Virus record (IMG/VR): IMGVR_UViG_2654588181_000002
Span: 1 to 13,222 of that record
Source of the DNA: a virus
Taxonomy: Duplodnaviria > Heunggongvirae > Uroviricota > Caudoviricetes
Strand: one strand, 5' to 3'
DNA: 13,222 nt
Below, in pieces: positions 1-13,222 of the stretch. Under the pieces are notes generated by a model, which saw only the letters and a program-made list of their open reading frames with translations, was not told the DNA's origin and made no database searches. How positions within the stretch are numbered: the stretch's first letter is position 1; every line of letters starts with the position of its first letter. The translations under genes and the position numbers were made by a program.

Positions 1-315
1 GATAATGGTTCATGCTACCGGGCTAATGAAACACGGCAGTTTGCCCGGATGTTGGGGCTTGAACCGAAGAACACGGCGGTGCGGAGTCCGGAGAGTAACG
101 GCATAGCAGAGAGCTTCGTGAAAACGATAAAGCGTGACTACATCAGTATCATGCCTAAACCAGACGGGTTAACGGCAGCAAAGAACCTTGCAGAGGCGTT
201 CGAGCATTATAACGAATGGCATCCGCATAGTGCACTGGGTTATCGCTCGCCACGGGAATATCTGCGGCAGCAGGCCAGTAATGGGTTAAGTGATAACAGG
301 TGTCTGGAAATATAG
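1..315 (+). CDS. insD: IS2 OrfB/InsD-type transposase, C-terminal fragment (5' end outside window)
   Basis: Translation from position 1: [104 protein letters not shown]. Recognised from memory as the IS2 InsD C-terminus. The ORF track lists only the internal Met at 49. Confidence 0.8.
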
Positions 316-326
316 GGGCAAATCCA
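1..326 (+). mobile_element. IS2-like (IS3 family) insertion sequence, 3' portion only; the outer terminal inverted repeat appears to be missing
   Basis: Frame 1 is open from position 1 to TAG 313-315 and encodes the C-terminus of an IS3-family DDE transposase (...[17 protein letters not shown]...). After GGGCAAATCCA (316-326) the sequence becomes AT-rich and unrelated to the IS2 terminal repeat as I recall it (no ...TTAAGTGATA...GGGGGCCAGTCTA). Confidence 0.7.
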
Positions 327-443
327 TTTAGAGCTATATTCTAGAGTATATGAGATACTATAAAGTTGAAGGAGCTATCATTAGAAAAACCATATGCTGC
401 TATAATTAGATGTCTCGCTTTTCATCCAATAACGAATTTTCTC

Positions 444-851
444 TTATAGATTGCTCTCTGGTTTTTTCGGCCACTCTGTATTTTTTATATCAACACGCAT
501 CAATAGTGCGCGATATTTTTTCCATGCCAGTAACAGTTTCGTTTCATCATCTGTTGCCATATCTAAATCAACCGCATCCTGAAGCGGTGCTATTACATTC
601 GTTGCCTCTGCTATCAGTGCAGATTTCTTTTCATTATTTATTAAGGCTAATTGTTCTGGTGTTGGAGAAGGACGGTCAACAATGACAGGGTGACCATTCT
701 CACCACAGGTAATCATTTTTGTTACACTCTGCGAATTAATCAGTGTTTTCCACTCTGATTCCGAGATTTCCACTGCATCATCAGGAATATTGGTGCCGTG
801 AAATTCAGTCGAATAAAATCCGTTTGTCGATGCAGAATAAAAATATGACAT
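444..851 (-). CDS. phage tail fibre assembly protein (Tfa family chaperone)
   Basis: C-terminal region ...IAPLQDAVDLDMATDDETKLLLAWKKYRALLMRVDIKNTEWPKKPE is the characteristic Tfa C-terminal domain. Start placed at the ATG at 849-851 (MSYFYSASTNGFY...) rather than ORF-track 947, because the upstream extension overlaps the tail-fibre gene in another frame. The upstream gene stops at 856-858. Confidence 0.8.
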   Translation of the reverse strand: MSYFYSASTNGFYSTEFHGTNIPDDAVEISESEWKTLINSQSVTKMITCGENGHPVIVDRPSPTPEQLALINNEKKSALIAEATNVIAPLQDAVDLDMATDDETKLLLAWKKYRALLMRVDIKNTEWPKKPESNL

Positions 852-855
852 TTCG

Positions 856-1506
856 TTAATATCCCATTGCAATGTAATACGCATCAGCAGATGAACCATA
901 TCCTGAACCGGGCGACACTGTAATATCAAATCCAGTGTTATGGACATTTGTCGCCGATACAGTCGGCTGCCCTGACGCGCCAGTAACGTTCAATGTAACT
1001 GTGACAGCAAGGACTCTTGAGAATGTCATCGGGAACCTCATCCCGTATGTTGAAGATACATTAGGGGAGCCATTCAACTGACCGCACTGTAAAATTAATC
1101 CAGACGGAAATTTTTGCGCAGCAGCCGTTGCGGTATTACTTGACGCGAACAGGCTCATATCAGGTATCTGATTCGCCCCTGTACCTACATTCCTTTTAGC
1201 CGCTTCTCCCAAACCAAGGTTTTCGAGAGCCGTTTGCACAGTGCCATCCGATTTGATATCGCCAAACGGATTCTTGCGGCTTAACAACAGCGCACGAAGC
1301 GCGGTAAGCAGCTGGTCATGCCGCCCCTTCTCCAGGCTGGCACCGGATGCCTCCACCACGCTGCAAAGCTCCTCCTGCAACATGTCAAAGTAGTCATCAT
1401 CCAGATCGGTGGCAGGTGTGCCGGTCTGGGGGTTACCACGGGTAAAACCGTTCTTACCCGCGCCGAACTTATCCTTCTGCGCGGTTTTGGTGTCTATACG
1501 ATGCAT
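856..1506 (-). CDS. phage tail fibre protein (short receptor-binding type, Stf-like)
   Basis: 216 aa. N-terminus [55 protein letters not shown]... and a Gly/Ser/Thr-rich C-terminus resemble short side-tail-fibre proteins of E. coli defective prophages (memory-based). It is immediately followed by a Tfa gene, the canonical stf-tfa arrangement. Confidence 0.6.
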
Positions 1507-1808
1507 GGATTACTCCGGATACCCCCTAGTGAATCTCCTGCACCATCAAGATGAAGGAGATAGATATTACTTGAGTTACCTTTTTCACCTTTCCGGGTGA
1601 CTTTTTTTACCAGCCCGGAATCACAAAGGGCCGCAATATGATTCATCACAGAACGTTTGCTAATCTCGCACTGGTCAGCAATATGCTGGTAGCTGGGCCA
1701 GCACTCACCCTGATCGCTGGCATTATCAGCCAGCTTGATCAGAACCAGTTTTCGCAATGGATTACCCACTCGAATTTTCATCGCTTTAACCATCAGCTCC
1801 ATACTCAT
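1494..1808 (-). CDS. small winged-helix/HTH DNA-binding protein (phage replication-initiator N-terminal-like, possibly truncated)
   Basis: 104 aa. Motif ...[47 protein letters not shown]... looks like the HTH N-terminal domain of phage replisome-organiser proteins. ATGA start/stop overlap with the upstream gene (1805-1808). The 3' end overlaps the tail-fibre start by 13 nt. Confidence 0.55.
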
Positions 1809-2041
1809 GCTGCACCTCCGAGATGCTTCATGTTTTTTCCGGAGCGAAAGGCTATAAGCGGCATACTGACGCGGTAATTACGGCCCAGCGGTTCACAAAT
1901 CACCTTCTGACATTCACGGTCAACCAGGCTGACACGTAGAACATGCCCTGCTGGCGTGGTGTACCACTGCCCAACTGTGGGTGTTGATATTTTTTTACGC
2001 TGAAATAAACGGTAAATGTTGAGGAGCAACGGATTAAGCAT
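1805..2041 (-). CDS. hypothetical small protein (78 aa)
   Basis: ORF whose start overlaps the upstream stop (ATG 2039-2041, upstream TAA 2034-2036) and whose stop overlaps the next start (ATGA at 1805-1808), suggesting translational coupling within one operon. No family recognised. Confidence 0.4.
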   Translation of the reverse strand: MLNPLLLNIYRLFQRKKISTPTVGQWYTTPAGHVLRVSLVDRECQKVICEPLGRNYRVSMPLIAFRSGKNMKHLGGAA

Positions 2042-2870
2042 GACGATGCCCTCCGCTGATATTCAGGAGACGGTGAATATGAAAATTAGCCTTATCCGCC
2101 AGACGAATACGTTCAGCTTGCAAGTTAAGAAGGGTTTCTACCAGAACCTGATGTGCCTGCGGATCCGAAAGAGTTACCTTGCGCAGAGCACGTAGTGCAG
2201 CTGTTACATAACTGAGTTTATGTAAGTCTTCATCATTCAGACGAGTGAGGGCTGGGACAGTAGCCATGATGGCAGCCTCCTTGATCGGTGAAATACTTCC
2301 ACCACCGGAAACGCCAATTTCGCTGGTGGTGAACTGAACGGGGTTGGCGTAACCGGTGATCAAGGAAACCGGCGCATCTTTCGATGCCCCCGCCCAGCCC
2401 ACCATAACTTTGATGTGAGCAAATGCGGACGATAAAAAAGACGCTGGCGCGTCATATATCGCCTTGATCAATTCCAGGACGCCAATCCCGGCACCCGCTT
2501 TATAAGGTGCCTGAACAGTGTAACGTCCCGGAATGGCAGAATCAATGTGCTGGTGGTCCTTCACACTCAACAAAATCACGCCTGAATTTCCACAAAGGGC
2601 TAAAGCACTCATGCGGGTAGTCTTTGCGAAGATAGATAACGCGCTGTGTTTCTGGCTCCCAACGAATAACATGAACATAAAGTCCTCTTCCGTCACGAAA
2701 CCAGCGGTTAAGTTCCTGCACAACTCGCCCCCCACAGTCAGGTAAAGTTCTCTGTGGTTACTTACAGCCAGGAGATTTGGTAATCTGCATTCATGCCGTA
2801 ACAACAGGTGTTCAGCGACGCTGACCACCAGCTGTTGCGACAAACGGTTATTTGCCGTTAAACTGTTCAT
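2034..2870 (-). CDS. hypothetical protein (278 aa) in the lambdoid replication-gene position; function unknown
   Basis: Long ORF with ATGA overlap to the upstream CII-like gene (2867-2870). No Walker A/P-loop, no N-terminal HTH and no other motif I can assign. Confidence 0.6.
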   Translation of the reverse strand: MNSLTANNRLSQQLVVSVAEHLLLRHECRLPNLLAVSNHRELYLTVGGELCRNLTAGFVTEEDFMFMLFVGSQKHSALSIFAKTTRMSALALCGNSGVILLSVKDHQHIDSAIPGRYTVQAPYKAGAGIGVLELIKAIYDAPASFLSSAFAHIKVMVGWAGASKDAPVSLITGYANPVQFTTSEIGVSGGGSISPIKEAAIMATVPALTRLNDEDLHKLSYVTAALRALRKVTLSDPQAHQVLVETLLNLQAERIRLADKANFHIHRLLNISGGHRHA

Positions 2871-3436
2871 GCGTTAGTTTCTCCACAACCAGAAGCAATC
2901 GACGCCACGACGCCCGGAGCTGCACACTCGCGGGCGTCATTACTTTCTGAAATGCAAAAGATTTTGTAGACCAGTGCTGCATGCTCCTGCAGCTTCGAAA
3001 TTGAGAGATACAGCTCGTCGTTAATTGCTGTCTTCTCATGCGGTTCCACTACACCGTCTTCGATTGCTGAACGAATCTGTTTTGAATAACTGCCGATCTG
3101 TTCAATGACTTCCAGCAGACGCTGGTTAATATCGGCGTTGTCCACATCCTCGACGTCAGGAAGAGACACAAAGACGCCATTTGCAGACTGCGCCACAGCG
3201 TCAGCAATGAAGTGAGTTCCACCAGCACGTTGCAAAATCATTGCCCATCCCAGCGGGAAAATCTGATCGCCATCGGCACGAAGGCGGTTAAATAATGCGT
3301 TCTCTGTTACATCCAGCCAGTCAGCTGCTTCAGCGTAACCACCCGGCAACTTTGCGATAGTTTTTCTGACAGCTTTCACGTACCACTCAGGCTGTTTTTC
3401 TACTTTCCAGTGATGCTTACCCACGGTTAGCCTCAT
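2867..3436 (-). CDS. phage CII-like regulatory protein (YmfL/YdaT-like)
   Basis: 189 aa, immediately downstream of the Cro-like gene on the same strand, in the cII position of a lambdoid immunity region. Resembles the e14 YmfL / Rac YdaT group (memory-based). No obvious Shine-Dalgarno upstream of the ATG at 3434-3436. Confidence 0.6.
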   Translation of the reverse strand: MRLTVGKHHWKVEKQPEWYVKAVRKTIAKLPGGYAEAADWLDVTENALFNRLRADGDQIFPLGWAMILQRAGGTHFIADAVAQSANGVFVSLPDVEDVDNADINQRLLEVIEQIGSYSKQIRSAIEDGVVEPHEKTAINDELYLSISKLQEHAALVYKIFCISESNDARECAAPGVVASIASGCGETNA

Positions 3437-3467
3437 CGTTCTGTGGTTAAAAATTGAAAGTGTTCTG

Positions 3468-3668
3468 CTAATCTTTCGGATAGATATCCGGTCTTAAGTC
3501 AGATTTCGTAATTGCACCTGACGTGCATTGCTCAAGTTTTTTAGCCAGCACAAAACTGGCTTTTTTATAGCCATTGAAAACCAGCCGTAAGTAGCCAGGT
3601 GTTGAGCCAACTTTTCCGGCCAACTCGCCCTGCTGTTCTTTGGTTAAAGAGTCCCAATACGCTTTCAT
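3468..3668 (-). CDS. Cro-like HTH regulator (YdaS/CroE-like)
   Basis: 66-aa product MKAYWDSLTKEQQGELAGKVGSTPGYLRLVFNGYKKASFVLAKKLEQCTSGAITKSDLRPDIYPKD, divergent from the CI-like gene. GGAGG lies 10 nt upstream of the chosen ATG (3666-3668). The longer ORF-track version (to 3971) would overlap the repressor gene and is rejected. Confidence 0.7.
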   Translation of the reverse strand: MKAYWDSLTKEQQGELAGKVGSTPGYLRLVFNGYKKASFVLAKKLEQCTSGAITKSDLRPDIYPKD

Positions 3669-3670
3669 AC

Positions 3671-3758
3671 AATATGTACCTCCGGTGTACATATTACATG
3701 ATTGAAATGAACCTTCAAGATACTTGTACCTTAACGGTACAAGAGTTTTAATTTCGTT
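3671..3758. promoter_or_regulatory. divergent immunity-switch control region: two inverted-repeat operators plus candidate pR (minus) and pRM (plus) promoters
   Basis: Operator 1 is AATATGTAC-N7-GTACATATT (3671-3695, perfect 9-bp arms). Operator 2 is CTTGTACC-TTAAC-GGTACAAG (3723-3743, perfect 8-bp arms). Candidate pR on minus strand: -35 TTGAAG (3719..3714), 17-bp spacer, -10 TAATAT (3696..3691), overlapping operator 1. Candidate pRM on plus strand: -35 TTGTAC (3724-3729), 17-bp spacer, -10 TTTAAT (3747-3752), ending about 7 nt before the repressor ATG. Confidence 0.6.
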
Positions 3759-4433
3759 ATGAAAACAATCCATGACATCCGGCGGTCTAACGCCAGAAAA
3801 CTGAGAGATGGTGTTGGCGGGAATTCTTCCTTTGCCACTATGATTGATCGCGAGCCAACCCAGACCAGCAGGTTTATGGGAGATGGTGCTACTAAAAATA
3901 TCGGTGACAGCATGGCACGACACATCGAAAAATGTTTCGACCTGCCTGTCGGATGGCTCGATCAAGAACACCAGACAACGAACATCACAAAAAAACCTGA
4001 TGTTTCAATCACTAATAAACAAATCACATTAGTCCCTGTCATATCATGGGTACAGGCCGGAGCATGGAAAGAAGTTGGATATTCTGAGGTTGATTTGAGC
4101 ACAGCAGAAACGTATCCCTGCCCTGTACCCTGTGGGGAAATGACTTATATCTTGCGGGTGATAGGTGATTCAATGATTGATGAGTACCGCCCGGGAGACA
4201 TGATTTTTGTCGATCCTGAAGTACCTGCCTGCCACGGTGACGACGTTATTGCATTGATGCACGATACAGGTGAAACCACCTTCAAAAGGTTGATAGAAGA
4301 TGGGACACAGCGTTATCTCAAAGCGTTAAACCCAAACTGGCCTGAGCCTTACATTAAGATCAACGGTAATTGCTCTATAATTGGTACAGTGATTTTCTCA
4401 GGAAAACCAAGAAGATACAAAATCAAAGCCTAA
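3759..4433 (+). CDS. CI-like prophage repressor (HTH + LexA-like S24 autopeptidase domain; CohE-like)
   Basis: 224 aa with an N-terminal HTH region and a C-terminal S24-type domain (VIGDSM... and FKRL Ser/Lys dyad context). Divergent from the Cro-like gene, and no Shine-Dalgarno before the ATG, consistent with a leaderless pRM transcript. Confidence 0.9.
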   Translation: MKTIHDIRRSNARKLRDGVGGNSSFATMIDREPTQTSRFMGDGATKNIGDSMARHIEKCFDLPVGWLDQEHQTTNITKKPDVSITNKQITLVPVISWVQAGAWKEVGYSEVDLSTAETYPCPVPCGEMTYILRVIGDSMIDEYRPGDMIFVDPEVPACHGDDVIALMHDTGETTFKRLIEDGTQRYLKALNPNWPEPYIKINGNCSIIGTVIFSGKPRRYKIKA

Positions 4434-4444
4434 TCAATGTTTAT

Positions 4445-4468
4445 GAACCTGCTTCGGCAGGTTTTTTT
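4445..4468 (+). terminator. intrinsic terminator downstream of the repressor gene
   Basis: ACCTGC-TTCG-GCAGGT hairpin (4447-4462, UUCG tetraloop) followed by a run of seven T (4462-4468), 12 nt after the repressor stop. Confidence 0.75.
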
Positions 4469-4472
4469 ATAC

Positions 4473-4505
4473 TTGACAATGTACCTTTGAGATACATAAT
4501 GTACC
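4473..4505 (+). promoter_or_regulatory. candidate early-left promoter (pL-like) with repressor half-sites
   Basis: -35 TTGACA (4473-4478), 16-bp spacer, -10 CATAAT (4495-4500). The ATGTACC motif occurs twice (4480-4486 and 4499-5505 region, second copy at 4499-4505), sharing the GTAC core of the operators at 3671-3743. Confidence 0.6.
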
Positions 4506-4582
4506 CAAGCGAAACAACGAACAGGCAGGACGCCCACGAAGTAGCCGCCTGGGGCATATGAAGTCCAGGATGATTCGTTAGC

Positions 4583-4608
4583 AACAAAAAAGCGCCTACA
4601 GGACGCTT
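4583..4608 (-). terminator. candidate intrinsic terminator on the minus strand, downstream of the 4845-5279 gene
   Basis: Minus strand reads AAGCGTC-CTGTA-GGCGCTT followed by TTTTGTTGC (plus coordinates 4590-4608 for the hairpin, A-run 4586-4591). It lies about 240 nt beyond the minus-strand gene's stop and inside the 5' leader of the plus-strand 68-aa gene. Confidence 0.45.
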
Positions 4609-4666
4609 AGCTCTTTAACAATCTGGTCCCCATCAACAAGTAACTGATAACTTGAGGAGATGTGAA

Positions 4667-4873
4667 ATGCACAAAACAGAACCCAAAATCGTCGCGCCTG
4701 GCTACACAGATGAGGAAATTTATGAGTGGATGACAAAGAAGCTGGCAGCTATAAACCAGCTTCGTGAAGTGCTGTCTTATCGACAGGAAACAATAGACTC
4801 CTTAAAAAAACTGGATCAGGAAATCACGGTTTTATCACAGGATGTTACTTTAGATATTGTGCAGACAAATTAG
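4667..4873 (+). CDS. hypothetical small acidic, predicted coiled-coil protein (68 aa), first gene after pL
   Basis: ATG at 4667 preceded by GAGGAG (4655-4660); the ORF-track 4652 start would be a TTG. Product MHKTEPKIVAPGYTDEEIYEWMTKKLAAINQLREVLSYRQETIDSLKKLDQEITVLSQDVTLDIVQTN. Not N-like (not Arg-rich). The 3' end overlaps the convergent minus-strand gene by 29 nt. Confidence 0.5.
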   Translation: MHKTEPKIVAPGYTDEEIYEWMTKKLAAINQLREVLSYRQETIDSLKKLDQEITVLSQDVTLDIVQTN

Positions 4874-5279
4874 GATCCCATTCATTTTCGTCAAAATCAT
4901 CAAAGTGATGAATTTGTGATCTCCAGTCTCGATAATCTAAAAATTTCTGGGCGGTTACGCTTATTTTATCAAGTGTGAGTTCATCCTGAATTGAAAGAAG
5001 AAGTTCATCAAATTTCATCTCATTAATCTGTTTTGGCATCCAGTGATGCTTCATCAGAATAAGGTGAACCAGAGCCTTTTTCCCATTCAACTGATTATAG
5101 GGAGTGCCGAATTTCTTCCGGTGCTCATGTAAGACAAGGTCCAAAAGAGTAAGTAATGTTGCCCTTGATTCAACTTTGCTTATTTCGACTGATGACACTA
5201 CCCCACTGATTTCAATGCCCCGATACTTTCCAACATTTTCACAGTGGGATTTGTACAGCGTATAGATATTACCGGACAT
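4845..5279 (-). CDS. hypothetical protein (144 aa), AT-rich antisense 'moron' gene; function unknown
   Basis: Clean 144-codon ORF opposite to all neighbouring early-left genes, visibly more AT-rich than its flanks, with an AGGA-like RBS upstream of the ATG (5277-5279) and its own candidate terminator. No family recognised. Confidence 0.6.
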   Translation of the reverse strand: MSGNIYTLYKSHCENVGKYRGIEISGVVSSVEISKVESRATLLTLLDLVLHEHRKKFGTPYNQLNGKKALVHLILMKHHWMPKQINEMKFDELLLSIQDELTLDKISVTAQKFLDYRDWRSQIHHFDDFDENEWDPNLSAQYLK

Positions 5280-5294
5280 TTCTTTTCCTTTTGC

Positions 5295-5343
5295 GTTGTT
5301 GGGGATAACCAGATTAACCGAATCCTTGTTGTTGGGGAATAAC
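5295..5343. repeat. two direct copies of GTTGTTGGGGA(A)TAAC, 33 bp apart, just upstream of the 4845-5279 gene
   Basis: 5295-5309 GTTGTTGGGGATAAC and 5328-5343 GTTGTTGGGGAATAAC. Position fits a regulator binding site or promoter element for the minus-strand gene. Confidence 0.4.
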
Positions 5344-5605
5344 TAGGTCCACCTCGCCTGATGTGGCTAAAAGCAGGCACATAACAGCTAAGTATTTTCA
5401 ACCAGAGAGAATCCTTAGCGTTGTGGTGAATGCGGCTCAGCGCACGCGGGTTAAGGTTGAGGCTGACAGTCGACCTTCTGTGGATACCCACCCGCCTGGT
5501 GTGCAACCTTCGCCAGGCACCGGGAGGCACCCGGCACCACAACTTTATGCTGTGTGTAGTCTTGGCGGTACCAGCTTGTACCCTTGCTTCCGGCTGGTAC
5601 CGTCC

Positions 5606-5704
5606 TTTTTACAAAACAGAGAAGAGCATCACCGGACGACGGGCTCATAACCCAATCCATCCGGGCGGCAGTCACCGCAGGTGTTCTTCTCTGTTTTGTG
5701 GAGA
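5606..5704. other. long imperfect palindrome / stem-loop within a GC-rich non-coding block
   Basis: Perfect 14-bp inverted repeat ACAAAACAGAGAAG (5611-5624) / CTTCTCTGTTTTGT (5686-5699), extendable with wobbles to about 20 bp, enclosing a ~49-nt GC-rich loop. No flanking U-run on either strand, so not a classical terminator. Confidence 0.4.
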
Positions 5705-5747
5705 AACTAACCGACCTTGCAGGGTCGATATGATGAGGAGCAGCAAA

Positions 5748-6110
5748 ATGGCTAGCGAACGCAGTACTGATGTGCAGGCATTTATCGGGGAGCTGGACGG
5801 CGGCGTATTTGAAACCAAAATCGGCGCAGTTCTCAGTGAAGTCGCTTCCGGTGTGATGAACACGAAAACCAAAGGTAAGGTCTCGCTCAACCTAGAAATC
5901 GAACCGTTTGATGAGAACCGAGTGAAAATCAAACACAAACTCTCATATGTTCGCCCGACTAACCGCGGGAAAATTTCCGAAGAAGACACCACCGAAACGC
6001 CGATGTATGTCAATCGCGGTGGTCGCCTGACTATTCTGCAGGAAGACCAGGGACAGTTGCTGACTCTTGCCGGTGAACCTGACGGAAAACTCCGCGCAGC
6101 AGGTCGTTAA
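5748..6110 (+). CDS. YfdP-like prophage protein (120 aa), function unknown
   Basis: Start at ATG 5748 (MASERSTDVQAFIGELDGG...) preceded by GAGGAG (5735-5740). The ORF-track extension back to 5430 translates to Arg/Cys/His-rich sequence typical of GC-rich non-coding DNA and is rejected. First gene of a block recalled as the CPS-53 yfdPQRST-like cluster. Confidence 0.65.
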   Translation: MASERSTDVQAFIGELDGGVFETKIGAVLSEVASGVMNTKTKGKVSLNLEIEPFDENRVKIKHKLSYVRPTNRGKISEEDTTETPMYVNRGGRLTILQEDQGQLLTLAGEPDGKLRAAGR

Positions 6111-6175
6111 TATCGTTTTTAATTAACTGATTATTTATCTCATCACTGAATATCTTTATATAGTGAGGACTTATT

Positions 6176-7000
6176 ATGTCTCAGAACTTAGACGCAACCG
6201 CAATTAATCAAATCCATGCCCTTATTTCTGCTCAGGGTGTTAATGAAATTATCAGTAAGATTGGTGCCGATGCTGTGGCATTGCCTGAGAATTTCCGCAT
6301 TCATGATCTGGAAAAATTTAATTTAAATCGCTTCCGTTTCCGTGGTGCGCTTTCCACTGCCAGCATCGATGATTTTACCCGTTATTCTAAAGATCTTGCA
6401 GATGAAGGCACCCGCTGCTTTATCGATGCTGATAATATGCGTGCCGTCAGTGTGCTTAACCTAGGTACTATTGATGAACCAGGTCACGCAGATAACACCG
6501 CCACACTCAAACTGAAAAAGACAGCACCGTTCTCTGCTCTGTTGTCTGTTAACGGCGAGCGTAACTCCCAGAAGTCACTAGCAGAATGGATTGAAGACTG
6601 GGCCGACTATCTTGTGGGCTTTGATGCTAATGGTGACGCTATTCAGGCAACAAAAGCGGCTGCGGCTGTCCGTAAAATCACGATTGAAGCAAACCAGACC
6701 GCTGATTTTGAAGATAATGACTTCAGCGGCAAACGCTCCCTGATGGAGTCTGTCGAAGCGAAGACCAAAGACATTATGCCAGTGGCATTTGAATTTAAAT
6801 GCGTTCCGTTTGAAGGTCTGAAAGAACGTCCGTTTAAATTACGCCTCAGTATTATCACTGGCGATCGTCCTGTACTGGTTCTGCGCATTATTCAGCTGGA
6901 GGCGGTGCAGGAAGAAATGGCTAACGAATTTCGTGATCTGCTTGTTGAGAAATTCAAGGACAGCAAAGTAGAAACCTTTATTGGTACTTTCACCGCCTGA
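6176..7000 (+). CDS. YfdQ-like prophage protein (DUF2303-type), 274 aa
   Basis: ATG 6176 with GAGGA (6165-6169) upstream. Product [30 protein letters not shown]... recalled as YfdQ-family. Confidence 0.75.
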
Positions 7001-7012
7001 TTTCATTACTGC

Positions 7013-7034
7013 AAATGCCCCTGCGGGGGCATTT
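7013..7034 (+). other. perfect 9-bp hairpin between the yfdQ-like and yfdR-like genes
   Basis: AAATGCCCC-TGCG-GGGGCATTT (stem 7013-7021 / 7026-7034). The only T residues are inside the stem, so it is a weak terminator at best; possibly an mRNA stability or processing element. Confidence 0.35.
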
Positions 7035-7127
7035 ATGGAAACGTAATTTACTCAATAATCGCCGGATGGTGAGGGATTCTTTTTACCAGAATTCAGCGCG
7101 GTGCAGCGCATATACGTGGAGAACAAA

Positions 7128-7664
7128 ATGTCATTTATTAAAACTTTTTCCGGGAAGCATTTTTATTATGACAGGATAAATAAAGACGACATCGATATTA
7201 ACGATATCGCGGTTTCCCTTTCAAATATCTGTCGCTTTGCCGGTCATCTTTCGCACTTCTACAGCGTCGCCCAACATGCGGTTCTTTGCAGCCAGCTGGT
7301 GCCGCAGGAATTTGCTTTTGAAGCGTTAATGCATGATGCAACAGAAGCGTATTGCCAGGACATTCCCGCACCACTGAAACGCCTTCTTCCTGACTATAAA
7401 CAAATGGAAGAAAAAATAGACGCCGTAATCCGTGAGAAATACGGGTTACCCCCAGTTATGAGTACGCCCGTGAAATATGCCGATCTCATCATGCTGGCAA
7501 CCGAACGCCGCGATCTCGGGCTTGATGATGGCTCTTTCTGGCCTGTACTGGAAGGTATCCCGGCAACAGAGATGTTCAACGTGATTCCACTGGCACCGGG
7601 CCATGCCTACGGGATGTTTATGGAACGCTTTAACGAGTTATCGGAGTTACGCAAATGCGCATGA
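7128..7664 (+). CDS. HD-domain phosphohydrolase (YfdR-like)
   Basis: 178 aa. H...HD metal-binding signature (...AGHLSHFYSVAQHAV... and ...ALMHDATEAY...). ATG 7128 preceded by GGAG (7117-7120); the ORF-track GTG at 7101 is rejected. Stop overlaps the next gene's start. Confidence 0.85.
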   Translation: MSFIKTFSGKHFYYDRINKDDIDINDIAVSLSNICRFAGHLSHFYSVAQHAVLCSQLVPQEFAFEALMHDATEAYCQDIPAPLKRLLPDYKQMEEKIDAVIREKYGLPPVMSTPVKYADLIMLATERRDLGLDDGSFWPVLEGIPATEMFNVIPLAPGHAYGMFMERFNELSELRKCA

Positions 7665-8017
7665 ATGTTTTCGAAATGGAAGGGTTTCTTCGTGGGAGAT
7701 GTGTACCGCGAGATCTGAAAGTAAATGAAACAGATGCTGAATACCTGGTGCGTAAATTCGATGCGCTTGAAGCTAAATGTGCAGCACAGGAAAACAAAGT
7801 AATACCAGTGTCAACTGAACTGCCACCAGCAAATGAAAGTGTTTTGTTATTCGATGCTAACGGAGAAGGCTGGCTAATTGGCTGGCGTTCTCTCTGGTAC
7901 ACCTGGGGACAAAAAGAAACCGGAGAATGGCAGTGGACATTTCAGGTCGGGGACCTTGAAAACGTCAATATCACTCACTGGGCAGTAATGCCAAAAGCAC
8001 CGGAGGCTGGAGCATAA
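7655..8017 (+). CDS. DUF551-like phage protein (YfdS-like)
   Basis: 120 aa, Trp-rich C-terminal half (...GWLIGWRSLWYTWGQKETGEWQW...) typical of DUF551. Start overlaps the previous stop (7655-7664); the stop overlaps the next start (8017). Confidence 0.7.
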   Translation: MRMNVFEMEGFLRGRCVPRDLKVNETDAEYLVRKFDALEAKCAAQENKVIPVSTELPPANESVLLFDANGEGWLIGWRSLWYTWGQKETGEWQWTFQVGDLENVNITHWAVMPKAPEAGA

Positions 8018-8322
8018 TGACCACTTTTACCGACAAAGAACTGATTAAAGAAATTAAAGAGCGTATCAGCAGCCTTGACGTGCGAGACGATATTGAGCGC
8101 CGTGCTTATGAAATCGCACTCCTATATCTGGAAGTAGAACCAGATGAACGCGAAGCTTATGAATTATTCATGGAAAAGCGTTTCGGTGACTTAGTAGATC
8201 GTCGGAGAGCAAAAAACGGCAATAACGAATACATGGCATGGGATATGACTCTCGGTTGGATCGTCTGGCAGCAACGAGCTGGTATCCATTTTTCAACAAT
8301 GTCACAGCAAGAGGTGAAATAA
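8017..8322 (+). CDS. hypothetical phage protein (YfdT-like), 101 aa
   Basis: Translationally coupled at both ends (ATG within ATAATG at 8017; TAATG at 8320-8324). Assigned as the last gene of the yfdQRST-like cluster by position and size only. Confidence 0.55.
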   Translation: MTTFTDKELIKEIKERISSLDVRDDIERRAYEIALLYLEVEPDEREAYELFMEKRFGDLVDRRRAKNGNNEYMAWDMTLGWIVWQQRAGIHFSTMSQQEVK

Positions 8323-8672
8323 TGGAGCCATACAGCCTCACACTCGATGAGGCCTGTCATTTTCTCAAGATATCCAGACCGACTGCCATTAACTGGATAC
8401 GCACAGGGCGTCTTCAGGCAACACGCAAAGATCCCACTAAGAATAAATCTCCTTACCTCACAACACGACAAGCCTGCATTGCGGCTCTTCAGTCTCCGCT
8501 GCATACTGTCCAGGTGAGCGCGGGTGATGGCATAACAGAGGAAAGAAAATGTCACTCTTCCGCAGAGGTGAAATATGGTACGCCAGTTTCACATTGCCGA
8601 ACGGTAAAAGATTTAAACAGTCTCTTGGAACAAAGGACAAAAGGCAGGCGACAGAACTCCATGACAAGCTAA
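8322..8672 (+). CDS. AlpA/Xis-type excisionase / DNA-binding regulator
   Basis: N-terminus [38 protein letters not shown]... is the AlpA-family HTH. ATG 8322 with GAGG (8311-8314) upstream. The ORF runs 116 codons and its last 124 nt overlap the integrase start in another frame, so the true C-terminus is uncertain. Confidence 0.7.
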
Positions 8673-9712
8673 AGGCTGAAGCATGGCGGGTCAGCAAACT
8701 TGGTGAAATACCTGATATAACGTTCGAGGAAGCGTGTGTCAGGTGGCTTGAAGAGAAAGCACATAAAAAATCACTGGACGATGACAAAAGCCGGATCGGA
8801 TTCTGGCTTCAACATTTCGCAGGAATGCAACTAAGAGACATTACTGAATCAAAAATTTATTCAGCAATGCAGAAAATGACGAACCGGCGTCATGAGGAAA
8901 ACTGGAAACTCAGGGCAGAAGCATGCAGAAAAAAAGGGAAACCTGTTCCAGAATACACGCCAAAACCAGCGTCCGTTGCAACGAAGGCTACGCATCTTTC
9001 ATTTATAAAGGCCCTACTAAGAGCCGCAGAGCGTGAATGGAAAATGCTGGATAAGGCACCAATTATTAAAGTGCCTCAACCAAAGAATAAACGGATCCGC
9101 TGGCTGGAGCCCCATGAAGCACAAAGGCTGATTGATGAATGTCCGGAGCCATTAAAGTCTGTTGTTGAATTTGCACTGGCAACAGGCTTAAGACGCTCGA
9201 ACATCATCAACCTTGAATGGCAACAAATAGATATGCAGCGCCGGGTGGCATGGATAAACCCGGAAGAGAGTAAATCAAACCGCGCAATTGGCGTTGCGCT
9301 GAATGATACTGCATGTCGCGTATTGAAAAAACAAATCGGGAATCATCACCGTTGGGTATTTGTGTACAAGGAAAGCTGTACCAAACCAGACGGAACGAAA
9401 GCGCCAACAGTAAGGAAGATGCGGTATGACGCAAACACAGCCTGGAAAGCGGCGCTGAGACGGGCTGGTATTGATGATTTCAGATTTCACGACTTGAGAC
9501 ACACCTGGGCAAGTTGGCTGGTTCAAGCCGGAGTCCCGTTGTCAGTGTTACAGGAAATGGGAGGCTGGGAGTCTATCGAAATGGTTCGTCGATATGCTCA
9601 CCTTGCACCTAATCACCTTACCGAACACGCACGGCAAATAGACTCGATCCTGAACCCATCGGTCCCAAATTTGTCCCAGTCAAAAAATAAGGAAGGTACT
9701 AATGATGTGTAA
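8549..9712 (+). CDS. tyrosine recombinase, phage integrase (e14 IntE-like)
   Basis: 387 aa. N-terminus [34 protein letters not shown] and C-terminal catalytic region ...[42 protein letters not shown] (R..H..R..Y). Stops 14 nt before the 3' end of the tRNA. Confidence 0.95.
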
Positions 9713-9725
9713 CTTATTGATTTTA

Positions 9726-9801
9726 ATGGTGCCGATAATAGGAGTCGAACCTACGACCTTCGCATTACGAATGCGCTGCTCTACCAACTGAGCTATATCG
9801 G
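9726..9801 (-). tRNA. thrW: tRNA-Thr (anticodon CGU)
   Basis: Minus strand reads GCCGATATAGCTCAGTTGGTAGAGCAGCGCATTCGTAATGCGAAGGTCGTAGGTTCGACTCCTATTATCGGCACCA: 7-bp acceptor stem, anticodon loop UUCGUAA, T-loop GGTTCGA, encoded CCA. Sits between proA and the integrase, as expected for a thrW-integrated island. Confidence 0.97.
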
Positions 9802-9854
9802 CCCTGAAAGGACATGTTCACGAACGTGAATCACGGTGGACAAGGTTAAAACTA

Positions 9855-9911
9855 ACCGGGCGATGCGTCAATGGCCTTGTGAATCAAATGGCTACTTTTG
9901 CATCACCCGGT
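9855..9911. terminator. hairpin between proA and thrW; candidate proBA terminator (T-runs on both sides)
   Basis: 12-bp arms ACCGGGCGATGC (9855-9866) / GCATCACCCGGT (9900-9911), with one wobble on the minus strand, flanked by TTTTATTT on plus (9911-9918) and TAGTTTTAA on minus. The 33-nt loop is long for a simple terminator. Confidence 0.4.
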
Positions 9912-9916
9912 TTTAT

Positions 9917-11170
9917 TTACGCACGAATGGTGTAATCACCAATGCCGATCCACTTGTAAGTGGTCAGTGCTTCCAGCCCCATTGGGCCACGCGCGTGGAG
10001 TTTTTGTGTGCTTACCGCCACTTCCGCACCCAGACCAAACTGGCCGCCGTCGGTAAAACGCGTAGAGGCGTTAACGTAAACAGCGGACGAATCCACTTCG
10101 TTAACAAAACGCTGGGCGTTGCGCATATCGCGGGTCAGGATCGCATCGGAGTGTTGTGTGCCGTGTTCACGAATATGGGCGATGGCATCGTCAAGATCGC
10201 TGACGATTTTGACGTTCAAATCTAATGACAGAAACTCATCGTCATACTCTTCGGCTTTAACAGCAACCACCTTCGCAGGGCCTGCCTGCAACTGCGCCAG
10301 TGCAGCTGCATCTGCGTGTAATGTCACGCCGCTTTCCGCCATTTGTTTGCTTAATGCGGGCAGGAAGCTATCGGCGATGTTTTTATTCACCAGCAACGTT
10401 TCAACCGTATTACATGTGCTCGGACGCTGAGTTTTCGCGTTGACGATCACTTTTAATGCTTCAGCGATCTCTACACTTTCATCAACGTAAATATGGCATA
10501 CGCCTATACCACCTGTGATCACCGGGATTGTCGACTGTTCACGGCACAGTTTATGCAAACCAGCGCCACCACGCGGGATCAGCATGTCGATGTATTTATC
10601 CATACGCAGCATTTCACTGACCAGCGCACGGTCAGGATTATCAATCGCCTGCACGGCACCCGCCGGTAAGCCGCAGGATTTCAGGGCGTCCTGAATCACC
10701 GCCACCGTTGCAGCGTTAGTGCGACACGTTTCTTTGCCACCGCGCAGGATCACCGCATTACCGGTTTTCAGGCACAGCGAAGCGACATCAACCGTCACGT
10801 TCGGGCGCGCTTCATAAATCACGCCAATAACCCCCAGCGGTACGCGACGACGCTCAAGACGCAGGCCGCTGTCCAGTACGCTGCCATCGATTACCTGCCC
10901 CACCGGATCGGCGAGGTTACACACCTGGCGCACATCATCGGCAATGCCTTTCAGCCGTGCGGGCGTCAGTGCCAGACGGTCAAGCATCGCTTCGCCAAGG
11001 CCATTGGCACGCGCGTCAGCAACATCCTGGGCGTTAGCGTTGAGGATGATTTCGCTTTGTGCTTCCAGTTCATCGGCGATTTTTTCCAGCACGCGATTTT
11101 TTTCGCGGCTGGAGAGTTGCGCTAATTTATACGAGGCTTGCTTCGCGGCAATGCCCATTTGTTCCAGCAT
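9917..11170 (-). CDS. proA: gamma-glutamyl phosphate reductase
   Basis: 417-aa product [58 protein letters not shown]..., recognised as E. coli ProA. GGAG sits 7 nt upstream of the ATG, 11 nt after the proB stop. Confidence 0.98.
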
Positions 11171-11181
11171 CAGCCTGCTCC

Positions 11182-12285
11182 TTAACGGGTAATCATGTCA
11201 TCACGGTGAACGGCAACCGGGCCGTATTCATATCCCAGTATTGCATCAATTTCTTGCGAGTGGTGCCCGGCAATACGGCGTAATGCATCGCTGTTGTAAC
11301 GACTGACGCCGTGGGCGATATCGCGACCTTCGAGGTTGCAAATGCGGATGACTTCACCACGCGAGAAATTGCCAGTCACGCTTTTAATGCCTTTCGGCAA
11401 CAGGGAGCTGCCGCGTTCAAGAATGGCGGCAGTTGCCCCTTCATCTACCGTGATTTCACCCGCCGGCGGCGCACCGAAAATCCAGCGTTTACGGTTTTCA
11501 AGCGGAGTCGCCTGGGCATGGAACAGCGTACCGACGGAAATGCCTTCCATCACATCACCAATAACGCCCGGCTTGCTGCCCGCGGCAATAATGGTGTCGA
11601 TACCCGCACGGCAAGCCACGTCAGCGGCCTGCAATTTGGTACTCATGCCGCCAGTTCCGAGGCCTGAAACGCTGTCACCGGCAATCGCGCGCAGTGCGTC
11701 ATCAATGCCGTAAACATCTTTAATCAGTTCTGCCTGCGGATTGCTGCGCGGGTCAGCGGTATACAAACCTTTTTGATCGGTCAGCAGCAACAGTTTATCG
11801 GCACCCGCCAGAATCGCCGCCAGCGCAGAAAGGTTATCGTTATCGCCGACTTTAATCTCTGCCGTAGCGACAGCATCGTTCTCATTGATTACCGGAACGA
11901 TATTGTTATCGAGCAACGCACGCAGGGTGTCGCGGGCGTTCAGGAAGCGTTCACGGTCTTCCATATCAGCACGGGTCAGCAGCATTTGCCCGACGTGAAT
12001 GCCATAAATCGAAAACAGCTGTTCCCACAGTTGAATCAGTCGACTCTGCCCTACCGCTGCCAGCAGTTGTTTCGAGGCGATAGTCGCTGGCAGTTCCGGG
12101 TAACCCAGGTGCTCACGTCCGGCGGCGATCGCGCCCGACGTCACAATAACAATCCGATGCCCGGCGGCATGTAACTGCGCGCACTGGCGAACAAGTTCAA
12201 CGATATGGGCACGGTTCAGACGGCGCGATCCGCCTGTTAGCACACTGGTGCCGAGTTTTACCACCAGCGTCTGGCTGTCACTCAT
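11182..12285 (-). CDS. proB: glutamate 5-kinase
   Basis: Product [66 protein letters not shown]..., recognised as E. coli ProB. Start set at ATG 12283-12285 (367 aa) rather than the ORF-track 12372, whose 29-codon extension is not part of ProB. Confidence 0.97.
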
Positions 12286-12473
12286 GATTCTCTGCCATTC
12301 AATTTTAGGAAAAATGATATCAAACGAACGTTTTAGCAGGACTGTCGTCGGTTGCCAACCATCTGCGAGCAAAGCATGGCGTTTTGTTGCGCGGGATCAG
12401 CAAGCCTAGCGGCAGTTGTTTACGCTTTTATTACAGATTTAATAAATTACCACATTTTAAGAATATTATTAAT

Positions 12474-12491
12474 CTGTAATATATCTTTAAC
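12474..12491 (+). promoter_or_regulatory. Pho box (PhoB binding site) of the phoE promoter
   Basis: CTGTAAT-ATAT-CTTTAAC, direct 7-bp repeats with a 4-bp spacer, about 80 bp upstream of the phoE ATG. A second Pho-box-like element in reverse orientation lies near 12431-12445 (TTACAGATTTAATAA). Confidence 0.5.
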
Positions 12492-12572
12492 AATCTCAGG
12501 TTAAAAACTTTCCTGTTTTCAACGGGGCTCTCCCGCTGAATATTCGCGCGTTAATTAAAATCAGGAATGAAA

Positions 12573-12627
12573 ATGAAAAAGAGCACTCTGGCATTAGTGG
12601 TGATGGGCATTGTGGCATCTGCATCTG
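12573..12627 (+). pseudogene. phoE: phoE 5' fragment (signal-peptide codons 1-18), interrupted by IS1
   Basis: ATG 12573 encodes MKKSTLALVVMGIVASAS, the PhoE porin signal peptide, then runs directly into the IS1 left end at 12628. Divergent from proB as in E. coli. Confidence 0.85.
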
Positions 12628-12682
12628 GGTGATGCTGCCAACTTACTGATTTAGTGTATGATGGTGTTTTTGAGGTGCTCCA

Positions 12683-12958
12683 GTGGCTTCTGTTTCTATC
12701 AGCTGTCCCTCCTGTTCAGCTACTGACGGGGTGGTGCGTAACGGCAAAAGCACCGCCGGACATCAGCGCTATCTCTGCTCTCACTGCCGTAAAACATGGC
12801 AACTGCAGTTCACTTACACCGCTTCTCAACCCGGTACGCACCAGAAAATCATTGATATGGCCATGAATGGCGTTGGATGCCGGGCAACCGCACGCATTAT
12901 GGGCGTTAGCCTCAACACGATTTTACGCCACTTAAAAAACTCAGGCCGCAGTCGGTAA
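12683..12958 (+). CDS. insA: IS1 InsA (transposition inhibitor / N-terminal part of the InsAB' transposase)
   Basis: 91-aa product [91 protein letters not shown] with a zinc-finger-like CxxC...CxxC N-terminus. Confidence 0.95.
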
Positions 12959-13222
12959 CCTCGCGCATACAGCCGGGCAGTGACGTCATCGTCTGCGCGG
13001 AAATGGACGAACAGTGGGGATACGTCGGGGCTAAATCGCGCCAGCGCTGGCTGTTTTACGCGTATGACAGGCTCCGGAAGACGGTTGTTGCGCACGTATT
13101 CGGTGAACGCACTATGGCGACGCTGGGGCGTCTTATGAGCCTGCTGTCACCCTTTGACGTGGTGATATGGATGACGGATGGCTGGCCGCTGTATGAATCC
13201 CGCCTGAAGGGAAAGCTGCACG
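12934..13222 (+). CDS. insB: IS1 insB reading frame (partial; expressed as InsAB' by -1 frameshift at the A6C slip site)
   Basis: A6C motif TTAAAAAAC at 12932-12940. The -1 frame after it reads [96 protein letters not shown] to the window end. In this copy the insB frame has a TAG at 12907-12909, upstream of the slip site. Confidence 0.8.

Follow-up and report, generated by a model that had tools for sequence, protein, structure and literature searches.

A probable leader RNA with modules related to DicF and STnc100 in the early-left operon of a lambdoid prophage

Introduction

Between a minus-strand gene of the ECs1072 family and the gene yfdP of a lambdoid prophage lies a stretch of about 400 nucleotides (nt) that is rich in G and C and folds strongly upon itself. 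Homologous stretches occur in about half of the complete Escherichia coli genomes (2861 of 5426), where they either carry no annotation or are labeled a hypothetical protein, a frameshifted pseudogene or ymfH. What, then, does this stretch encode? We address this question for positions 5344–5747, hereafter the block, of a 13,222-nt sequence of a tailed virus (Caudoviricetes; IMG/VR record IMGVR_UViG_2654588181_000002, positions 1 to 13,222), which at its full length is referred to as the window.

A preliminary description of the block had listed several candidates: a structured non-coding RNA on either strand, an element for processing or antitermination, or a DNA site for recombination or repressor binding. 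In the following, we argue that it is a non-coding, plus-strand leader RNA of the prophage early-left operon, built as a chain of RNA modules, which precedes the yfdP–yfdQ part, yields a DicF-type small RNA (sRNA) and is processed; we estimate the probability of this interpretation at about 60%. Judged by its sequence, the block is not categorically new, being a divergent, sub-threshold variant of the STnc100/PasD and DicF families, fused in one leader. The preliminary description had allowed for a known repeat family or a decayed gene, and the first half of this proviso comes close to what we find.

Results

Composition, folding and strand

The GC enrichment noted in the preliminary description is borne out: the block has a GC content of 54.5%, compared with 38.3% in the 500 nt to its left, where the low value is that of the antisense gene, 46% to its right and 48% in the whole window. 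A direct check of the sequence also finds the three reported stem pairs exactly where they had been placed, namely GCCTGG (5494–5499) with CCAGGC (5513–5518), GCGGTACCAGC (5565–5575) with GCTGGTACCGT (5593–5603), and a perfect 14-mer (5611–5624 with 5686–5699). Self-complementarity goes well beyond that of shuffled sequences on both strands. On the plus strand, 5344–5760 folds with −177.5 kcal/mol (z = −6.67), which none of 100 dinucleotide shuffles attains, and the minus strand reaches z = −3.12. Because the helices of homologous sequences keep pairing through G-U wobbles, which are A-C mismatches on the minus strand, and because the plus-strand z-score is twice as strong, we assign the structure to the plus strand. 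Among the earlier candidates, the structured RNA is thereby strongly supported, and a minus-strand leader of the antisense gene is not.

A pseudoknotted core domain of the STnc100 superfamily

In Rfam, the full STnc100 model (RF02076, positions 1–206) aligns at 5390–5613 with 43.4 bits, below its gathering score of 47 bits (E-value 5.7e-8 in a search of 851 nt and 8.8e-7 in the whole window). Sub-threshold matches are likewise found in phiES15 (40.6 bits), the P1-like phage RCS47 (38.3), ST64B (35.1), Qin (34.4; E-value 1.5e-5, in the dicF–dicB spacer of K-12 MG1655) and e14 (29.2), and it is from such sub-threshold matches that the E-values derive. On the PR side, a possible second copy (window positions 6992–7171, plus strand) scored only 19.8 bits (E ~1) in the whole-window scan and was judged to be a chance match.

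The match centers on a pseudoknotted domain of ~125 nt (Table 1), which has the architecture and the invariant ends of the 5′ two-thirds of the STnc100/PasD prophage sRNAs. More than 120 viral contigs, in 23 sequence clusters, have the exact 22-mer CACCGGGAGGCACCCGGCACCA in common; in these clusters, a 5′ motif (U)GUGGUGAAU and the 3′ motif CACCGGGAGGCACCCGGCACCA enclose a hypervariable middle. Type I, the Rfam family proper, continues with AAUCCCCCUNNGCGGAGGGGCG after the 5′ motif and has a TTGACN-18-TAAnTT promoter ending 7 nt upstream, whereas type II, the form seen in the window, continues with AAUGCGGCUNAGCGCACGCG and has no adjacent promoter (mean promoter score 6.8 in type I versus 4.5 in type II). 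A terminator lies within 160 nt downstream in 46 of 58 unique type I and 14 of 35 unique type II sequences.

A scan with the type II 5′ motif yielded 98 copies, with 36–45 unique sequences, from which the helices were read. Pairs were tabulated for 33 distinct sequences, N-padded, with the variable P4 insert excised and imported gap-free through MAFFT; loci L237–L316, which stem from 15-mer matches that are almost all due to chance and come from unrelated phyla, were left out except for L265. Six helices are kept, with 88.9% of the cells paired versus 69.6% in shuffles and 35–41% when the structures are slid along the sequences; helices 3–5 were placed by a per-sequence search that gives 100% pairing by construction, so that only the shuffle and permutation controls count, and the homologues are related by descent, so that cell counts overstate the number of independent events. 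Thirty-two pairs changed on both sides, many pairs are G-U, and the covariation score is 0.415 versus 0.135 in shuffles, none of 500 of which came as high. Both the Rfam scan and the comparison of homologues, which the preliminary description had proposed as checks, speak for a structured RNA. RNAalifold, run on an unbiased MAFFT alignment, recovers P1, the P2 hairpin and P6, with compensatory changes in P1 and P6 (G-C to U-A in six sequences). The P2 region is invariant, and its two registers, UGCG/CGCA and GCGGC/GC-CGC, are therefore indistinguishable.

The partners of the pseudoknot, one of which lies in the P5 loop, covary as well: AAGGUUG/CAACCUU in the window corresponds to AAGGCUGG/UCAGCCUU, GAACUGGCA/UGUCAGUUC, GGCAAA/UUUGCC, AGACUGACA/UGUCAGUCU, CAGUUAA/UUAACUG or GCGGUUA/UAACCGU in homologues. 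Cognate partners score 16.8 on average versus 11.7±0.96 after permutation (0/20000), where the control runs the same per-sequence search on non-cognate partners. Type I carries the same P5-loop pseudoknot (15.6 versus 11.8±0.45 permuted, 0/5000), and this is why we attribute the STnc100 architecture to the window domain beyond what its borderline score would justify. In contrast to the covarying interior, the ends and loops (GGUGAAU..., ACCGGGAGGCACCCGGCACC) are invariant across lambdoid, Qin-like and P1-like phages. Helix P1 varies in length: it has 9 base pairs (bp) in the window, plus 4 bp past an internal loop, and 15–19 bp with compensatory changes in the Qin-like copies (a perfect 17 bp in L236, with GUAAUG/CAUUAC). 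The hairpin P0, which abuts P1, also covaries (GAUAAGAG/CUCUUAUC in ST64B).

A third type of core is found in ECSC054 (L004, 3078–3209) and mEp460 (L360, 2360–2492), where the P1 strands and flanks are identical to those of the window. This type III core forms a hairpin-loop pseudoknot of its own (UUGCGG/CCGCAA), its P2 and P6 loops are complementary (GCUGAU/AUCAGC), and it has no match in Rfam. The difference between types II and III is a cassette exchange inside a fixed P1 frame.

In all these settings, the domain lies just 5′ of a functional part of the RNA. This part is an sRNA seed with a terminator in type I and in lambdoid type II, or the ribosome-binding site of an mRNA 25–45 nt downstream, which belongs to dicB in Qin, to other small genes or to a small membrane open reading frame (ORF) in RCS47. 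As a working guess, the core serves as a structural module at the 5′ side, fixing and protecting the 5′ end of the seed or ribosome-binding site that follows.

The domain occurs in SfV, ST64B, phiES15, P1-like phages, Qin and e14, and K-12 thus has two unannotated copies. One fills the dicF–dicB spacer (L359, 1946–2090; MG1655 1649445–1649589); the other, slightly decayed, lies in e14 (L002, 3043–3390) under the annotated ymfH, which also covers the DicF-like module described below. In RCS47, a type II copy upstream of the ban operon (L357, 3004–3160) has the compensatory P1 pairing GCGGUG/CACCGC and lies 25 nt upstream of the Shine-Dalgarno sequence and ATG of an unannotated, membrane-like ORF of ~78 codons. 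P1-like and SSU5-like phage-plasmids in PLSDB have the 5′ 31 nt in common. Type I units, with promoter, domain and terminator, are found upstream of nanS-p esterase and holin genes (L007–L126), sometimes as two in tandem, 220–510 bp apart. They follow stx2B (by ~105 nt), DNA methylase or TerB-like genes and only rarely Q directly. We considered whether type I is the late pR′-tR′ RNA and rejected this identity, as a Q-like gene lies directly upstream in only 3 of ~95 cases, the usual neighbors being stx2B, methylase and TerB.

A DicF-like module with another seed

The core is followed by a single-stranded linker and a hairpin. The preliminary description had stated that none of the stems is followed by a run of U and had concluded that they are not simple terminators. 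This is wrong for the stem at 5564–5603, which is followed by C-C-TTTTT (5604–5610) and forms an intrinsic terminator of the DicF type. An alignment with DicF of K-12 shows UUGGCGGUAYCAG...CCGYCCUUUUU in common, the 5′ part being different. The Rfam model of DicF (RF00039) gives the window 19.4 bits (E-value 0.16), below the gathering score of 48 bits, with 28.5 bits for the e14 copy and 76.7 bits for K-12 DicF. A feature of DicF, a hairpin-terminator UUGGCGGUAUCAG...CCGCCCUUUUU within a repressor-controlled early-left (dicB-type) operon, is nevertheless present in the window, and loci L139, L172 and L165 are intermediates. In K-12, L136, L163–165 and L198, an exact DicF with its terminator comes first, then a type II domain and then the start of dicB, and in L139 and L172, DicF-like RNAs with the exact seed of the window lie upstream of such a domain.

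In the lambdoid group (the window, ST64B, phiES15, L187 and L235), the domain is followed by a linker ending in UGCUGUGUGUAGUC(U)U and then by a phage-specific terminator. The seed UGCUGUGUGUAGUC is kept in E. coli, Salmonella ST64B, Cronobacter phiES15, L187, L139 and L172, with differing terminators next to it. It is conserved across phages of Escherichia, Salmonella and Cronobacter while the terminator stems were replaced, as would be expected of a seed acting in trans; its complement occurs nowhere else in the window. From these relationships, we conclude that 5549–5610 is a putative sRNA module of the DicF family with an alternative seed.

DicF itself pairs with the mRNAs of ftsZ, xylR, pykA and manX. 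It binds Hfq, and its 5′ end is made by RNase E (PMC9438474, PMC5069750). It has two 3′ ends, one at 53 nt from termination and an alternative one at 72 nt from an RNase III cut of the full-length transcript (PMC9438474, PMC5069750, citing Faubladier 1990).

A long hairpin ahead of yfdP

Behind the terminator, a long hairpin (5606–5705) folds with −51 kcal/mol (z −8.56), and its closing helix includes the U-run. In homologues such as e14 and ST64B, the stem still forms, with one G-C pair turned into A-U and others exchanged between G-U and C-G, and GCGG..CCGC, CUGUG..CACAG or GCUGU..ACAGC takes the place of the inner hairpin. By analogy to DicF, we consider the long hairpin a candidate RNase III site. 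In K-12, P1 of the domain is a 17-bp helix, AAUUUUGUGAUGUGGUG/CACUGCAUCACAAAAUU, that starts a few bases after the U-run of DicF, and the RNase III end of the 72-nt form, 19 bases past the 3′ end of DicF, would fall inside its 5′ strand. Because P1 is short in the window, the RNase III idea rests there on the downstream helix and on analogy. A design common to both loci, an sRNA terminator followed by a long helix, suggests that RNase III may free the sRNA from read-through RNA and trim the downstream message. A published RNase III mapping study contains no data on this locus. Processing, one of the earlier candidates, is plausible on these grounds, and antitermination is kept as an alternative of low rank.

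Genomic setting

The gene order was taken from the PGAP annotation of an identical chromosome and from scans of the window: the cro-like ymfT (minus strand) is followed by ymfK (plus strand), a terminator, a promoter, a leader, an ORF, the antisense gene, the block, yfdP and yfdQ (DUF2303). Because of the order ymfK, PL-like promoter, block and yfdP–yfdQ, the block lies in an early-left, PL-type operon (Table 1). ATGTAC repeats flank the promoter, from which the block would be transcribed. The leader contains the 12-mer GCTCTTTAACAA, which we take to be an rrn-type boxA and which recurs in 25 fetched related loci; with the hairpin preceding it, it suggests that the operon undergoes Nus-factor-dependent, N-independent antitermination. 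The first ORF of the operon is acidic and has no family match, and no N-like protein was seen.

Homologous blocks precede yfdP-like genes in SfV, SfII, SfIV, mEp460 and ST64B, xisE–intE in e14, kil–gam in phiES15 and dicB in Qin. At these loci, the domain always lies downstream of a repressor gene, at the head of the early-left genes. No conserved protein partner emerges, as loci with the same core have different genes on either side, and loci with different cores have matching ones: upstream of the block, e14 has ymfI/ymfJ, ST64B no antisense gene, ECSC054 another gene and Qin ydfC/dicF.

Table 1. Features of the block and its surroundings in the window
Feature	Position	Strand	Basis
ymfK, LexA-like/cI-like repressor gene	3759–4433	+	Peptidase_S24 match
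ymfK terminator	4445–4464	+	scan
PL-like early-left promoter, TTGACA-16-CATAAT	4473–4500	+	11/12 consensus match; directly after ymfK terminator
PL-leader hairpin	4590–4608	+	sequence
Presumed rrn-type boxA GCTCTTTAACAA	4610–4621	+	exact match; hairpin 4590–4608 precedes
ORF, 68 codons	between boxA leader and antisense gene	+	window scan
Antisense ECs1072-family gene	4845–5279	−	NF033230
Upstream hairpin GCCUG...CAGGC	5356–5378	+	sequence reading; stem kept in variant with altered loop (L027/L038)
Hairpin P0, GCUAAG (5387–5392)/CUUAGC (5414–5419)	5387–5419	+	minimum free energy fold; abuts P1
Type II pseudoknotted core domain, ~125 nt, STnc100 superfamily	5420–5543	+	Rfam match, pair counts, permutations, RNAalifold
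P1 closing helix	5420–5428/5535–5543	+	homologue comparison
P2 invariant hairpin	within 5431–5444	+	homologue comparison
P3	5448–5451/5490–5493	+	homologue comparison
Pseudoknot AAGGUUG/CAACCUU	5453–5459/5504–5510	+	3′ partner inside 9-nt P5 loop
P5, 8 bp, includes GCCTGG/CCAGGC of the preliminary description	5494–5501/5511–5518	+	homologue comparison
P6, CCGGG-AGGCA-CCCGG	5520–5534	+	directly 5′ of P1 closing strand
Single-stranded linker with seed UGCUGUGUGUAGUC (5548–5561)	5544–5563	+	conserved across homologues
DicF-type intrinsic terminator: 12-bp stem GGCGGUACCAGC/GCUGGUACCGUC, 17-nt loop, C-UUUUU	5564–5610	+	alignment with K-12 DicF
Long hairpin domain, 23–25-bp closing helix including terminator U-run	5606–5705	+	fold and homologues
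Inner hairpins of long hairpin domain	5632–5664 and 5665–5678	+	
Small hairpin CGACC-UUGCAG-GGUCG	5712–5727	+	sequence
Shine-Dalgarno GAGGAG	5735–5740	+	sequence
yfdP start codon ATG	5748–5750	+	PGAP

Several further observations concern the locus. Just upstream of the block, 5320–5340 (GAATCCTTGTTGTTGGGGAAT) and 5290–5306 (TTTGCGTTGTTGGGGAT) are degenerate copies resembling the P1 5′-strand sequence GAATCCTTAGCGTTGTGGTGAAT (5409–5431), which may have been left behind by recombination or may serve the antisense gene as promoter or operator repeats. In six loci (L043, L112, L128, L171, L174 and L212), the leader joins at GGAGAAACTAACCG (5700–5715 in the window) directly to a sequence resembling 7015–7090; yfdP–yfdQ are absent from this mosaic junction, and a GC hairpin CCCCTACGGGGG stands in place of CGACCTTGCAGGGTCG.

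Elsewhere in the window, C4 antisense RNA (82.3 bits) and isrK (64.2 bits) match at 2322–2523 (minus strand), both above their Rfam gathering thresholds, together with a weak c4-a1b1 target match; ST64B has the same pair. These form an antisense immunity and antirepressor module of the P1/P7 type within a lambdoid prophage. A tRNA-Thr(CGU) at 9727–9802 (minus strand), followed in the PGAP annotation by a Panacea-domain gene and a truncated dusA-like fragment, is probably a thrW-type attachment site at the prophage end. IS009 has a sub-threshold match at 481–657 (minus strand; 41.9 bits versus a gathering score of 117).

Discussion

Proposed mechanism

We propose that inactivation of the LexA-like repressor encoded by ymfK would allow the PL-like promoter to fire. 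RNA polymerase would then cross the antisense moron and transcribe the pseudoknotted domain, followed by the seed and the DicF-type terminator, where termination would define the 3′ end of a DicF-family sRNA. This product could be an RNA of ~190 nt comprising domain, seed and terminator, as in the STnc100 layout, or a DicF-like RNA of ~60 nt left after an RNase E cut in the AU-rich linker. Either would act in trans on host mRNAs with the help of Hfq. Polymerases that read through would form the helix of the long hairpin, which swallows the U-run, and an RNase III cut there may release the sRNA and trim the yfdP message or set its 5′ end. In Qin, the 72-nt DicF would likewise arise from an RNase III cut in the long helix that closes this domain. 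A precedent for the combination of termination, RNase E and RNase III is DicF itself (PMC9438474, PMC5069750, citing Faubladier 1990).

Several points weigh against this interpretation. Both Rfam scores of the window stay below their gathering thresholds, and the 5′ seed is UGCUGUGUGUAGUC rather than the UUUCUGGUGACGU of DicF. With the start region of ftsZ, neither the window RNA nor even true DicF reaches duplex energies better than those of shuffles, so that this comparison does not discriminate; no target was found in ftsZ or in the window. A promoter immediately upstream of the domain was looked for and not found, and the sRNA would then appear only on induction. P1 (9 bp + 4) is short for RNase III, and part of the pairing in the core is given by construction, as described above. 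Lastly, the core probably does something more specific than protecting a 5′ end, because a 125-nt pseudoknot with invariant loops is more than simple protection calls for.

Alternative explanations

In one alternative, the sRNA and leader features are secondary, and the core is a binding platform, a decoy or a catalytic RNA: it might sense a ligand, sponge up a host RNA-binding protein or defense factor, or be a ribozyme that defines its 5′ end by cleaving itself. The invariant ends and loops around a covarying interior fit such a role, as do the three interchangeable cores in one fixed P1 frame (with type III in ECSC054 and mEp460 between identical flanks) and the constant position 5′ of a seed or ribosome-binding site; the lack of a conserved neighboring protein points to a host partner. 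We nevertheless find it rather doubtful, as no riboswitch or ribozyme of Rfam matches, no ligand or partner can be named, and recombination hot spots in mosaic phages could account for part of the conservation, with degenerate copies of the P1 5′ motif just upstream. In a similarly tentative vein, the core might represent an unrecognized class of phage RNA domains with a biochemical activity of its own that controls the RNA 3′ of it, with at least three exchangeable alleles: type I in STnc100/PasD, type II in the window, Qin, e14 and P1-like phages, and type III in mEp460 and ECSC054. It may then bind RNA polymerase, Hfq, an RNase, a defense factor or, through its conserved GGAGG, the ribosome, or cleave itself. 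If so, the sRNA accounts of STnc100, PasD and DicF would cover only the tail of the molecule. A bound host machine, as suggested by the invariant loops, could also be RNA polymerase itself, which would make the domain a cis-acting processive antiterminator analogous to put of HK022, enabling read-through of the terminator right behind it and of later ones without an N protein. The domain does lie downstream of PL and immediately before an intrinsic terminator that the early-left genes must pass (in phiES15 a strong one, with an 8-bp GC stem and seven U, before kil–gam); as noted, the only early product looked at, that of the acidic first PL ORF, has no family and an N-like protein was not seen, and put acts independently of phage proteins (PMC9378689). 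However, putL and putR, located in NC_002166, have no similarity to the domain in sequence or structure, their two-stem fold is not found in it, and we rejected an identity with put. Furthermore, HK022 has both putL and putR, whereas the PR-side operon of the window holds no second copy; the type I relatives start from a promoter of their own and terminate efficiently, STnc100 and PasD being abundant discrete sRNAs (10.64898/2026.05.13.724894); the Qin domain follows the DicF terminator and directly precedes the dicB ribosome-binding site; and the PL leader already has its presumed boxA. Antitermination by the domain thus appears improbable to us.

The remaining alternatives deny that the block acts as a plus-strand RNA. 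It could be the minus-strand leader or promoter region of the ECs1072-family gene, which starts at 5279 and needs a promoter within 5280–5420, or a repressor or recombinase site with a GTAC core, in line with the preliminary description, which noted GGTACC and TTGTACC motifs that have the GTAC core of the immunity operators. Repeats of the form TTGTTGGGGA(A)T at 5290–5340 and the partly symmetric helices, which let the minus strand fold too (z −3.1), would agree with this. It is very improbable all the same, given the G-U pairs and the difference in z-scores discussed above, the variation or absence of upstream antisense genes (e14, ST64B, ECSC054, Qin) and the lack of promoter-like sites on the minus strand of 5280–5800. 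Nor do the GGTACC motifs look like operator copies, since the homologous terminators read GGTATC, GGCATC or GGCACC: GTAC is not conserved, and the letters belong to the stem. As for a protein, the preliminary description saw no credible ORF, and this stands only in part, as an ORF at 5430–6110 is open for 226 codons in frame with yfdP and could code for a protein like YmfH or extend YfdP at its N terminus. Existing annotations agree with a protein, in that the homologous stretch is ymfH in e14, a 'frameshifted hypothetical' pseudogene in PGAP and a hypothetical protein in several phage records. Yet the coding evidence is negative. The 106-codon translation has no match in Pfam or NCBIfam, no Shine-Dalgarno sequence precedes 5430, and the predicted product is rich in Arg, Cys, His and Pro. 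Among 25 close variants, the variable sites are not focused on third codon positions (11/13/19 at positions 1/2/3), and four have frame-breaking indels (+1 in the U-run, −8 nt) with the sequence downstream still conserved. The frame is lost in the ST64B, Qin, P1-like and type III homologues, and base pairing fully accounts for the constraints on the sequence. We consider a protein product scarcely credible; the block is probably non-coding, and ymfH of e14 is probably not a protein. The papers that mention ymfH in the literature searched are silent on any RNA.

Significance

If the block is a leader RNA, as we favor, a phantom gene would disappear from the K-12 element e14, and many prophages, including e14, would gain a second sRNA of the DicF family with a different conserved seed. 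In K-12, the well-studied spacer between dicF and dicB contains a conserved pseudoknotted domain with homology to STnc100/PasD, which offers a structural reason for the old finding of a 72-nt DicF made by RNase III. It also makes the domain, of which prophages of enterohemorrhagic and enteropathogenic E. coli and of Salmonella carry many copies, genetically tractable in K-12. In the literature searched, we found no report of a pseudoknot common to the STnc100 types, of the domain in the dicF–dicB spacer or under ymfH, of its linkage to DicF-type modules, or of the alternative conserved seed and the type II/III cassette swap; a 2026 preprint on Pas RNAs links PasD with STnc100 and does not mention DicF (10.64898/2026.05.13.724894).

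Comparison with known systems

Like the block, putL and putR of HK022 are structured RNAs that originate in the early-left operon of a lambdoid phage lacking N, where they precede terminators. They are adjacent to PL, though, whereas the window domain lies ~900 nt from its PL-like promoter, in a single copy and with relatives that are efficiently terminated.

Helices processed by RNase III are also a feature of phage early transcripts, as in the N-leader and sib of lambda and R1.1 of T7. These resemble the window and Qin in that long helices lie near a gene start in an early polycistronic transcript. While they are plain hairpins, the Qin helix closes a conserved pseudoknotted domain, and cleavage in the window is a prediction.

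STnc100 and PasD share with the window the closing helix UGGUG/CACCA, the 'AAU' junction, P6 (CCGGG-AGGCA-CCCGG) and the P5-loop pseudoknot, which is absent from the Rfam model and was found here in types I and II. The order of domain, single-stranded linker and intrinsic terminator is also the same. Differences lie in the P2 region (AAUGCGGCUNAGCGCACGCG in the window versus AAUCCCCCUNNGCGGAGGGGCG in type I), in the promoter, which type I has to itself and which was not found for the window domain, terminator notwithstanding, and in location: the window domain lies in the early-left operon behind the repressor, STnc100/PasD in the late region near stx, nanS-p and holin genes (PMC12370729; 10.64898/2026.05.13.724894).

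DicF of Qin differs from the window in its 5′ seed and in its hairpin loop, which in DicF is the part that pairs with ftsZ. Likewise, the order of the modules is reversed, as the domain precedes the sRNA in the window and follows it in Qin. Both, however, belong to a repressor-controlled early-left operon of a lambdoid prophage, both have the homologous hairpin-terminator UUGGCGGUA(U/C)CAG...CCG(C/U)CCUUUUU, and both are physically linked to the structured domain, with a long helix immediately after the terminator.

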